This document shows positions 60,418 through 62,552 of a stretch of 64,000 nucleotides of DNA, in pieces. Made by a program: the position numbers and the translations under genes. How positions within the stretch are numbered: the stretch's first letter is position 1; each line of letters opens with the position of its first letter. Origin of the DNA: Escherichia coli (GTDB lineage Bacteria > Pseudomonadota > Gammaproteobacteria > Enterobacterales > Enterobacteriaceae); the NCBI RefSeq assembly GCF_017348835.2, contig NZ_CP071375.1. One strand, 5' to 3'. The notes under the pieces were generated by a model that saw nothing but the letters and a program-made list of their open reading frames with translations, ran no database searches and had not been told where the DNA came from.

Positions 60418-61020
60418 TTACCGTAAAGCCCACGCCATCATACCCAACGTAACAAAACTCAGGCACGTTCCCCACTCACTCCACTTCCGTATCTGGCTTC
60501 TATTTTTGCTACGCCACTGGCAATAATATCCCAACGCAAAACCAAGCTGTGCGCTTATTGGACCGATAAAATCCGTCCACGGCTGAGGCCAAAATGGCGA
60601 AAAATTCAGGGGTAGCCAGACAACAAGCAGAAAGAAATTGCGGATACTTTCCAGCAACGCAATTTTCGCTGGCGCGATGTAAAAAATGATATTCCAGAGG
60701 ATCAACCATAAATAGACCGGTGCGAATACCAACCAACAATGGAGCCTGCTTTTCAATTCAGATTGAGTTCTACGAGTAAATTGCCAACCGACACAACATA
60801 TTACACAGAAAAAAAGCGCATATTCAGCCGATAACCAAAGTTGTAATTGCAGAAGTGAAATACGCCTGATCATGAGCGAGATTGAGAACAGCATTTCCCC
60901 CAGAAAACTCAGCGTGATAATACAAGCAGCCAGTGCAACCACCGTCGGCCACACCAACAACGGTACAATAACAAAGCCGAGAAATAACGGATAAATATAA
61001 AGTCTGATTATATTCATCAT
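60418..61020 (-). CDS. Hypothetical polytopic membrane protein (yzgL-locus gene 2)
   Basis: 200-aa strongly hydrophobic ORF; start overlaps stop of upstream ORF by 1 nt (TAATG). Confidence 0.55.
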   Translation of the reverse strand: MMNIIRLYIYPLFLGFVIVPLLVWPTVVALAACIITLSFLGEMLFSISLMIRRISLLQLQLWLSAEYALFFCVICCVGWQFTRRTQSELKSRLHCWLVFAPVYLWLILWNIIFYIAPAKIALLESIRNFFLLVVWLPLNFSPFWPQPWTDFIGPISAQLGFALGYYCQWRSKNRSQIRKWSEWGTCLSFVTLGMMAWALR

Positions 61021-62552
61021 TATTGTCCTGATGATTCGGGGGATGCTTCATACAGCGGCACATACCCCACATCCTCTACCAACTGTTGCCCCTGCGGACT
61101 TAAAAACCAGTCAACAAATTTCTGCGTTTCCGGCGTGGCATTTTCACGCGTCACCATAAATGCATCGACGATGTACGCATATTTGCCGTTGCGAATGTTT
61201 TCCGCCGTCGGTGTAATATCGTTAATCGCTAGCAATTTTATATTTTTATCAGCATTCATTTGCGTCGCGTAATAGCGGAAGGTATAGCCTATTGCGTTGT
61301 TTGTATTACGATATTCGGCAACGACTTTAATCATTCCCTCCATTACGCTTGCCACTTCGGTTTCCTGCGGCGAGATCATACGGACATTTTTCATGACCTG
61401 TGATTGCATCACCGTCTGGCTGCCAGAGTCTTCCGGGCGTTGCCAGGTCTGGATCTCCTGATCGTTACCGTCAACAGTACGCCAGTTGGTAATTGCACCA
61501 CTGAAAATGTCACGCACCTGTTGTTCAGTCAGAGAATTAACCGGATTATCCGCATTGACGATGAAAACGAATGCTTCACGGGCAAATGGCGTGTATAGCA
61601 AAGTGACGCCCGATTCCTCTGCGCGTTTTTTCTGCCCACCGGAGGGTTGCGCCACAAAAATAATATCGGCATCACCTTTAACAATCCGGTTATATGCATC
61701 GGGGGTACGAGAGTTCTCCAGATATTCCCAGATGTGGAAATCTTCCGGTATAACGCTCAACGCATAAAAGGCAGAGGCATAAATTGGGTACGCCGCCGTA
61801 GCACCATCGAGTCGCGGCCAGTTTTGCGTAAACTGAATTTGCGGTTTACCACGCAGTGGTGTCAGTTGATTATTGAGTTTATCGGGTCGCCAGGCCCAGG
61901 TATCAATATTTTCACGGACACCGACGCCGGGATTAAGCTGTTTATATAAATAAGCCTGGTAACCGGCGACAAAACCAAGCATGAGAAGGATAAACAAGAG
62001 GGAATTACGGCAACGTAACCCGGACGTGCCCGTTAAAAGATGTCTGGTCGGCCAACCGTACCCCAGCGAAAAACTGATATGCGCGCCAACGGGTATAATG
62101 ACTATCCACCAGTACTCACCACCAACTAATGAGACTAACAAAACACCCAGCCAGGGAAGCATAAGATCAGCCAACCAACCCGATCCCATCTGGCGAAATT
62201 GATAATCTGCCAGATGCAGCGCGATTATCCAGCCAATCAGGGTTAATAGTGCGGGTAAGAGAAAAAAGCATTGTCGCCAGGCGGCTATTTCTCTTTTTTC
62301 TGGTGCACTATCGCCCGCCCATACTCGCCCCGAGAAAAATAGCATTATCGCACCCAGCGCCAACATAAAAATGTTAAGCAGAAGGTAAATTGTTGGCGTG
62401 AAGAGTAAATTGCAAACTTCAAGAATGGCGGCAAGCCCGCCCCCCAGCATAGCAACAACCGCTGCCAAAAATTGCGTCAGTATGGGGAGGCCGAAAAAAG
62501 TCATTACCAGCGAGGACAAAATCCATTTTCTGTTTTGCATTATTCTTTCCAT
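61020..62552 (-). CDS. Membrane-anchored protein with C-terminal PstS-like periplasmic phosphate-binding domain (intact counterpart of the K-12 yzgL remnant)
   Basis: 510-aa ORF: hydrophobic N-terminal half, C-terminal half with PBP-type motifs (TEQQVRDIFSGAITNW). Confidence 0.6.
   Translation of the reverse strand: MERIMQNRKWILSSLVMTFFGLPILTQFLAAVVAMLGGGLAAILEVCNLLFTPTIYLLLNIFMLALGAIMLFFSGRVWAGDSAPEKREIAAWRQCFFLLPALLTLIGWIIALHLADYQFRQMGSGWLADLMLPWLGVLLVSLVGGEYWWIVIIPVGAHISFSLGYGWPTRHLLTGTSGLRCRNSLLFILLMLGFVAGYQAYLYKQLNPGVGVRENIDTWAWRPDKLNNQLTPLRGKPQIQFTQNWPRLDGATAAYPIYASAFYALSVIPEDFHIWEYLENSRTPDAYNRIVKGDADIIFVAQPSGGQKKRAEESGVTLLYTPFAREAFVFIVNADNPVNSLTEQQVRDIFSGAITNWRTVDGNDQEIQTWQRPEDSGSQTVMQSQVMKNVRMISPQETEVASVMEGMIKVVAEYRNTNNAIGYTFRYYATQMNADKNIKLLAINDITPTAENIRNGKYAYIVDAFMVTRENATPETQKFVDWFLSPQGQQLVEDVGYVPLYEASPESSGQ

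Follow-up and report, generated by a model that had tools for sequence, protein, structure and literature searches.

Binding domains held covalently at the membrane are known from Gram-positive ATP-binding cassette (ABC) importers of the OpuA and GlnPQ type and from lipoprotein- or transmembrane (TM)-anchored binding proteins; such systems have an ABC permease as their membrane component, and an ATPase works with it. Binding proteins also work without an ABC ATPase in the TRAP and TTT secondary transporters, whose membrane part comprises 12 or more TM helices. Here we analyse a two-gene module within a 64,000-nucleotide stretch of Escherichia coli DNA (NCBI RefSeq assembly GCF_017348835.2, contig NZ_CP071375.1), hereafter the window. 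The module lies on the minus strand between glpD and glgP and encodes a 510-aa protein (61020-62552), in which a polytopic membrane domain is fused to a PstS-like binding domain, followed by a 200-aa polytopic membrane protein (60418-61020). As in OpuA/GlnPQ-type systems the binding domain is covalently linked to a membrane domain, but the latter matches no permease family and no ATPase gene is present. Should the module transport anything, it would share with TRAP and TTT systems a binding protein operating without an ABC ATPase. However, it has no homology to DctQ/DctM or TctA/TctB, about five predicted TM helices (10 if paired with the 200-aa protein) and a binding domain of the PstS class rather than the DctP or TctC class. 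The gene pair is, with high confidence, one rare form, made by deletion, that a polymorphic accessory operon takes at a glpD-glgP hotspot of Escherichia. Taken as a whole, this hybrid origin coupled with the mechanism of a membrane-tethered oxyanion receptor is the best explanation of the locus by a modest balance of probability. The pair is an accessory locus whose genes were already annotated; what is new here is that the 510-aa gene is a hybrid, that the 200-aa protein is homologous to the membrane domain of its neighbour, and that this domain is rare and tightly associated with the PstS-like binding domain.

The deletion is revealed by comparison with a three-gene form of the operon. In E. 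coli ATCC 8739, O157:H7 and SBF22 the glpD-glgP slot holds g1 (502 aa, membrane and binding domains), g2 (330 aa, a lipoprotein binding protein) and g3 (200 aa), which RefSeq labels in the ATCC 8739/O157:H7 operon as two 'PstS family' proteins and one hypothetical protein. The window has g3 in common with that operon (97% protein identity), as well as the way in which the g3 start overlaps the preceding stop and, as another allele of ~90% identity, the first ~468 codons of g1. It differs in lacking g2, and its g1 ends in the last ~33 codons of g2 plus a 9-codon tail. The g2 protein is 57% identical to the g1 binding domain, and at the DNA level the two genes diverge by 34%, their 3' ends being 66% identical. 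The missing 1,004 bp equal the in-register spacing of these paralogous 3' ends. Measured against the g1 and g2 of ATCC 8739, informative sites in the window gene are 205/222 g1-type and 17 g2-type on the 5' side of the crossover, and 52/54 g2-type and 2 g1-type on the 3' side (Fisher p=1.2e-38). The switch falls at 61148-61159 on the minus strand, codons ~465-469, within the 'TTTATGGTGACG' stretch common to both genes. The g2-derived tract of ~33 codons that follows (61050-61147, minus strand) agrees with the 3' end that g2 has in ATCC 8739 and in O157, and its two deviating sites fit the g2 allele of SBF22. SBF22 itself was ruled out as the parental three-gene haplotype, its g1 being just 90% identical.

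Comparison with other g1 genes gives the direction of the change. A canonical end ...QKLVEWFLTPQGQSLVEDVGYVPLYPTME, or a close variant of it, is found in E. coli types B, C and D, in E. albertii, in Klebsiella oxytoca and in Salmonella; within this comparison a g2-type end ...QKFVDWFLSPQGQQLVEDVGYVPLYEASPESSGQ at the 3' end of g1 is seen in the window gene only. Because canonical g1, including that of the Klebsiella and Salmonella outgroups, ends in the former way and the window gene in a g2-like way, the window gene is a derived deletion hybrid. The preliminary description had supposed that this strain keeps the ancestral form of the locus, a view that gives way here to a fuller form of three genes. 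The converse history, in which the two-gene form is ancestral and a binding-protein gene was inserted or duplicated afterwards to give the three-gene form, is very improbable. A tandem duplication of the binding domain must once have occurred, given the relatedness of g1 and g2, and g1 often stands without g2 in outgroup genera, both of which fit such a history. It is opposed by the g2 tail in place of a g1 tail after a sharp crossover, by the canonical PLYPTME-type tails of the outgroup g1 genes, by the near identity of the window 3' tract to extant g2 alleles despite the overall g1/g2 divergence, and by the existence of two distinct crossover points together with the scarcity of the intact window form (2/5,426 genomes).

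A third layer is present at the very end of the gene. Its last 9 codons and stop (EASPESSGQ*; 61020-61049, minus strand) travel with g3, as seen in a DNA alignment of all genes that precede g3, and match exactly, at the DNA level, the 3' end of an unrelated gene of 255 aa, which in other arrays stands before g3. The native end of g2 in E. albertii, when read through a 1-nt frameshift, is ...VPIYPVLK. The tail was acquired in a previous deletion, by which g2 became fused to the end of the 255-aa gene, and the 510-aa open reading frame (ORF) is thus a mosaic of three layers, with g1 followed by g2 and then by the 255-aa gene tail. Unequal recombination between the g1 and g2 3' ends very probably removed the 1,004 bp, and the lipoprotein g2 with them, leaving an in-frame g1::g2 hybrid of 510 aa that retains translational coupling to g3.

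Strain Res13 has the same two-gene layout with another g1 allele and a crossover ~60 nt further 3' (248/2 informative sites, then 0/39). As this crossover is independent, the g1/g2 deletion has occurred at least twice. Seven genomes that include O169:H41 strains carry the window's crossover minus a further ~84 bp across the stop/start junction. In this group (O169:H41 F6326-C1 and six other genomes; L014:2962-4992) the region around the crossover is 99.5% identical to the window, the extra deletion is equivalent to window positions 60968-61051, and the g1 body is only ~93% identical to that of the window, from which it follows that the window allele is itself a recombinant mosaic. A 221-bp junction query proved of no use for counting hybrids, as canonical g1 3' ends align to it at ~90% over >80% of its length in 639 genomes. 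Hybrids were instead identified by alignment, and comprise only the ≥99% class of matches and Res13.

Genome counts over 5,426 complete genomes place the hybrid within a broad range of locus states. An intact g1 body is present in 3,343 of them, the operon in some form occurs in 62% of complete E. coli genomes, and g3 is found in 2,053 and g2 in 890; a g1 body ≥99% identical to the window's occurs in two. At the other end of the range lies the K-12-type junction, present in 1,261. Here the preliminary description stated, correctly, that K-12 has only ~0.6 kb with the yzgL fragment: K-12 derivatives hold yzgL alone in 614 bp and not the two intact genes. It had further taken yzgL for a C-terminal remnant, and on this point the alignment gives the opposite end of the gene. 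K-12 keeps the equivalents of window 60205-60477 and 62323-62666, and yzgL (b3427) aligns to the latter interval at 92%. Its translation consists of residues 4-77 of the 510-aa ORF, that is 74 g1 codons, joined to ~20 out-of-frame codons of the g3 3' end, and RefSeq flags it as 'missing C-terminus'. The pseudogene shares with the window gene its chromosomal slot, the upstream region and an ortholog of the first 74 codons, but ~1.85 kb of window sequence is gone, or ~2.85 kb relative to the three-gene form. Thus yzgL is the N-terminal remnant of g1 and the end point of the same decay series. This orphan pseudogene originated in a three-gene operon, as what is left of a PstS-like protein tethered to the membrane. 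The locus thereby offers a natural series of nested, homology-driven deletions that leads from a long array through three genes, the two-gene hybrid and the truncated hybrid to the K-12 remnant.

Such a series raises the question of whether the module is already a functionless leftover in this strain, its ORFs being intact since the deletion was recent and in frame. Consistent with this are the repeated loss of the locus through independent deletions, including the many K-12-type remnants, an IS1 element in g2 of one strain, frameshifts in g3 of SBF22 and g2 of E. albertii, and the further deletion in the closest relatives of the window allele. We nevertheless regard it as quite unlikely. Both ORFs are intact, the junction preserves the predicted fold (pLDDT 91-96 over residues 441-500 in the AlphaFold2 model), the promoter region is conserved and the family is under purifying selection. 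Nucleotide differences among the g1 alleles of E. coli amount to 1-11%, or to 5-11% when distinct allele classes are compared. Synonymous divergence (dS) is 0.2-0.43 for most allele pairs and lower for close alleles; the corresponding value for glpD, window versus K-12, is 0.145. The ratio of nonsynonymous to synonymous divergence (dN/dS) is 0.06-0.16 in the binding domain, with the closely related C/SBF22 pair as an exception at 0.31, 0.16-0.32 in the membrane domain, 0.18-0.37 in g3 and ~0.1 in g2. These values point to old alleles maintained by purifying selection.

Single genes of the operon are being inactivated in separate lineages. In E. coli KMi029 (H66; NZ_CP147109.1 346698-348333) g2 is interrupted by IS1A, another route of decay. 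The SBF22 g3 frameshift lies within L016:2765-3365, and the 1-nt frameshift of g2 in an E. albertii genome within L008:7535-8446.

The binding domain of the 510-aa protein spans residues ~225-500 (61053-61880, minus strand), with support from PDB profile matches, Foldseek and a sub-cutoff TIGR02136 score. Pfam PBP_like_2 (PF12849) matches at residues 250-486 with E=4.7e-31 (109 bits against a cutoff of 27), and hydrophobic helices occupy residues 1-206, so the polytopic N-terminal half and PstS-like C-terminal domain that were first described both stand. In the PDB, a profile of the family matches phosphate-binding (PstS) proteins and nothing else, with 4q8r and 4gd5 at the top (E~1e-25). The AlphaFold2 model of the whole protein has a mean pLDDT of 85.5 and its best Foldseek matches are all PstS proteins, with a TM-score to target of 0.77, including phosphate-bound 4gd5. 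The closest described relative is accordingly PstS of the PstSCAB importer (TIGR02136/PF12849; 4gd5, 4q8r, 1twy, 4exl), with which the domain shares the type II fold and the G-A-T and R-x3-S-G-S anion-binding motifs. Aligned to 4q8r, the 'GATA' segment corresponds to PstS 'GSTS', R372-PED-S376-G-S378 corresponds to 'R-x3-S-G-T', and Thr283 is conserved; all three elements are invariant or nearly so across 30 homologs, and the invariant residues of the family include T252, S304, R372, S376 and S378. In E. coli PstS the first segment reads 'GATF', and the phosphate ligands are T10, F11, S38, D56, R135, S139, G140 and T141. Conserved counterparts of PstS ligand residues would be T252/A253, T283, R372 and S376-G377-S378, in a register uncertain by ±1.

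The domain also departs from PstS in several respects. It is fused to a polytopic domain of ~205 residues in place of a cleaved signal peptide or lipid anchor, its gene has neither pstCAB neighbours nor a Pho box, and its family score falls below the cutoff. The ligand-binding Asp segment of PstS ('ASRD', as in 4q8r, or 'GASD') aligns with 'AQPS', Ser304 being invariant (register again uncertain by ±1), and the family has the additional invariant residues E326 and R426. Since the GATA segment, T283 and R-x3-S-G-S are kept while 'ASRD' reads 'AQPS', the pocket looks anion-binding yet distinct from the standard phosphate site.

The membrane domain comprises residues ~1-206 (61935-62552, minus strand). 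In the AlphaFold2 model it has six helices, at residues 2-46, 53-82, 87-114, 124-144, 149-169 and 177-206. Lys/Arg clusters mark the N-terminus and the segments that follow helices 2 and 5; in g3, the region of helix 4 is short with many Pro and Trp residues. We infer a domain of five TM helices and one interfacial element with its N-terminus inside and C-terminus outside (N-in/C-out), which would place the binding domain in the periplasm. This topology rests on the distribution of Lys and Arg and on the lipoprotein nature of g2, whose lipobox LLAGC implies that binding domains of this kind are exported. No Pfam or NCBIfam family matches the membrane domain, and it has no sequence or fold likeness to BPD_transp_1, DctQ/M or TctA/B. 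A profile search among 1.84 billion representative proteins recovered 155 clusters only, g1 and g3 both among them, in keeping with the original impression of an unusual architecture. Of 150 matches examined, 79 are fused to a PstS-like binding domain, the rest being mostly fragments or stand-alone forms of ~200 aa.

The stand-alone form within the module is g3 itself (60418-61020, minus strand), a relationship that the preliminary description missed. No Pfam, NCBIfam or PADLOC family matches g3, and direct BLASTP of g3 against the membrane half of g1 is not significant (E=0.74). Profile-profile alignment with hhalign, however, joins the two with 96.8% probability and E=3.3e-10 over 192 colinear columns. 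Both carry a motif P-x-x-x-Q-x-x-F-x-L-G, which reads P-V-G-A-H-I-S-F-S-L-G-Y in g1 and P-I-S-A-Q-L-G-F-A-L-G-Y in g3. The AlphaFold2 model of g3 (pLDDT 82.4) has helix boundaries that match those of the g1 membrane domain, so its polytopic character, noted from the start, follows the same helix pattern. On these profile and model comparisons g3 is a paralog of the 510-aa protein's own membrane domain.

Two further proteins carry the domain. In E. albertii, a 375-aa protein that matches the 510-aa protein at E=1.6e-21 combines it with a C-terminal part of unrelated sequence. In an enterobacterium (JGI 3300026487 / GCA_044745165.1; L017:5001-5624), a 207-aa stand-alone copy lies directly after glgP, in the position of g1 and without a binding domain, and is followed by two small genes of no known role.

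As a model for function we tentatively propose an oxyanion receptor that is tethered to the membrane and faces the periplasm; it would need no ABC transporter and might have g3 as a partner. The hybrid protein would sit in the inner membrane, N-in/C-out, and present its PstS-fold domain to the periplasm. That domain, which keeps GAT-A, Thr283 and Arg372-x3-Ser-Gly-Ser and lacks the discriminating Asp, could bind phosphate, a related tetrahedral oxyanion or a phospho-compound at the membrane surface; this range of ligands is proposed because most of the phosphate-type motif is kept while the discriminating Asp is gone. The receptor would then act through its own rare membrane domain, with g3 as a possible second homologous subunit, and uptake, retention and signalling are candidate outputs. 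The membrane domain is more plausibly a working partner than a mere anchor, since it is persistently fused to a binding domain and since a split and reversed arrangement, the translationally coupled g2-g3 pair, exists beside the fused g1. No ABC permease or ATPase gene lies near the module in the window, as had been observed at first for the ATPase, and no ABC genes stand next to the gene in ~12 contexts from E. coli types, Klebsiella, Salmonella, E. albertii, Limnobaculum, Brachymonas, Leclercia and others.

A more conventional role would be that of a tethered PstS, which captures phosphate, phosphite or phosphonate and hands it to PstCAB or another ABC importer in trans, the membrane domain being an anchor only. 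Homology to PstS is clear in sequence and fold, R-x3-S-G-S and GAT are kept, and RefSeq names the protein 'PstS family'. In mycobacteria and cyanobacteria, several PstS paralogs serve one transporter, which also counts in favour of such a role. We consider it unlikely all the same. The classical PstS function is disfavoured by the sub-threshold family score, the altered Asp segment with its discriminating residue replaced, the lack of a Pho box and the lack of adjacent ABC genes in the contexts above, and a conserved membrane domain of ~200 residues that is under purifying selection and also exists as the separate gene g3 exceeds what an anchor needs.

At the opposite extreme, the ~5-TM domain and PstS-like domain might form a new binding-protein-dependent membrane system without an ABC ATPase, built around a pseudo-symmetric g1/g3 pair. 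Its task could be to carry phosphate or a related phospho-anion as a small transporter, or to sense it as a signalling device that spans the membrane. The g1/g3 pair would share a single tethered binding domain, joined in strains with three genes by a lipoprotein one. We give this extended proposal little credence. An ABC-independent anion receptor or transporter, if true, would mean that Gram-negative bacteria employ binding proteins in a novel manner.

Several observations weigh against the tethered oxyanion receptor that we prefer. The membrane domain resembles no known transporter or receptor and has no solved relative. The 510-aa protein does not reach the curated NCBIfam PstS cutoff (TIGR02136, 128.6 bits against 206.6), and neither does g2 (119.1), while the change to 'AQPS' in the Asp segment means that the ligand may differ from phosphate. 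A search for a Pho box ahead of the 510-aa gene was negative: the closest approach to CTGTCAT-N4-CTGTCAT has 8/14 matching positions, which is also the modal value in shuffled sequence. Most genomes with g1 lack g3, as the counts above show, and stand-alone membrane-domain genes adjoining a binding-protein gene were not found outside Escherichia. Pairing of g1 with g3 is accordingly not obligatory, given the g1 genomes without g3 and the stand-alone copies without a binding-protein neighbour. The intact hybrid is also very rare, with its two copies, and the window allele may be en route to loss as its closest relatives are further decayed.

Distant homologs bear on the ligand to a limited degree. 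In Leclercia (L025:6625-7449) a distant membrane-fused homolog is immediately followed by a gene for polyphosphate kinase 2 (PPK2), and in Brachymonas (L023:1074-1979) a PPK2 gene lies ~3 kb from such a homolog, a proximity that is weak evidence for a phosphate-related role. The ruv genes flank the homologs in Brachymonas and a second Salmonella paralog (L024), the latter between ruvC and ruvA.

The glpD-glgP interval is a hypervariable hotspot with many alternative gene arrays, a feature that had escaped the preliminary description. Other states of the locus include g1 with 255- and 201-aa genes, g1 with 236-, 255- and 201-aa genes, arrays beside a fimbrial operon, and small remnants. E. albertii has an array of g1-g2-375-236-262-255-204-ankyrin, and Klebsiella and Salmonella carry g1 in the same slot with other small genes. 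The region was independently named 'Hotspot A' in a 2026 paper (PMC13185298); a search for literature on the function of the locus found nothing beyond this and a row for yzgL in an array study (PMC2731931).

The module might then be a cassette of a polymorphic island for interbacterial or phage conflict, for example in membrane immunity or exclusion, with the PstS fold co-opted beyond nutrient binding. The hotspot, its label in the literature and its frequent presence/absence variation are compatible with such an island, as are the arrays of small proteins (236, 255 and 375 aa, ankyrin-repeat), the fimbrial operon of some strains, the cassette-like reuse of a ~30-nt tail together with the g3 start, and the very old allelic lineages evident from dS values within E. 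coli above that of glpD. No toxin and no known immunity or defence family was found in Pfam, NCBIfam or PADLOC, however, dN/dS is well under 1 with no sign of diversifying selection, and the distant homologs are solitary genes in ordinary contexts. A role in conflict is therefore improbable in our estimation. The accessory 236-, 255- and 375-aa proteins have no informative Pfam or NCBIfam match, and homologs of the 255-aa protein are all named 'hypothetical'. The idea that these proteins form an 'immunity array' was dropped as unsupported by any informative family or name.

Other arrays at the hotspot add detail. In the E. albertii array downstream of g1-g2 (L008:8524-13509), the 375-, 236-, 262-, 255- and 204-aa proteins and the ankyrin-repeat protein all lack an informative family, and the 262- and 255-aa proteins are paralogs with 38% identity. 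E. coli Trh52 and WP8-S18-ESBL-07 (L010, L013) have a chaperone-usher fimbrial operon in the glpD-side slot, adjoining 201/258/248-aa genes or their remnant. In Salmonella, a 181-aa protein (PRK09781; L007:7564-8109) consists of the first 44 residues of the Klebsiella 234-aa protein joined to the 139-aa 'YbbD_head' protein (K. oxytoca, L005:7838-8958). It is another deletion-made hybrid at the same hotspot.

Within the window, the gap from the glpD stop (60204) to the glgP stop (62668) measures 2,463 bp, which agrees with the 2.46 kb initially given, and the two intact, translationally coupled genes are present in it as described, overlapping by one base in the stop/start sequence TAATG. E. 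coli PE164, a pig isolate, is 100% identical to the window over 57705-64000, and its RefSeq annotation names the 510-aa gene 'PstS family phosphate ABC transporter substrate-binding protein' and the 200-aa gene 'hypothetical protein'. Genes flanking the module are ~97-98% identical to K-12; the strain is therefore an E. coli other than K-12, as had been proposed. The G+C content is 0.42-0.50 at the module against 0.50-0.585 over glpD and glpE/glpG, with 0.48-0.54 in the adjacent glgP. The start codon of the 510-aa gene is ambiguous between ATG at 62552 (510 aa), the RefSeq/PGAP start at 62543 (507 aa), which is an ATA codon, and ATG at 62540 (506 aa). A strong Shine-Dalgarno sequence is absent at all three.

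A candidate -10 hexamer TATAAT (62570-62575, minus strand), a perfect consensus match only, can be read from the sequence before the 510-aa gene, a region that is conserved in both ATCC 8739 and K-12. In the CpxR regulon section of an envelope-stress array study, yzgL is tabulated with a value of -2.0 (PMC2731931), which suggests that the promoter is active in K-12. A predicted strong intrinsic terminator of glgP (62625-62650, minus strand; ACGGGGCC-AAA-GGGTCCCGT, then a T-run) would set the module apart from glgP. Between the g3 and glpD stops lies an inverted pair of repetitive extragenic palindromic (REP) elements, a bacterial interspersed mosaic element (BIME; 60267-60366), with the inverted repeats TGCCTGATGCG/CGCATCAGGCA and CTTATCAGGCCTAC/GTAGGCCTGAGAAG, and on account of this REP pair a query with the whole gap matches a median of 21 places per genome.

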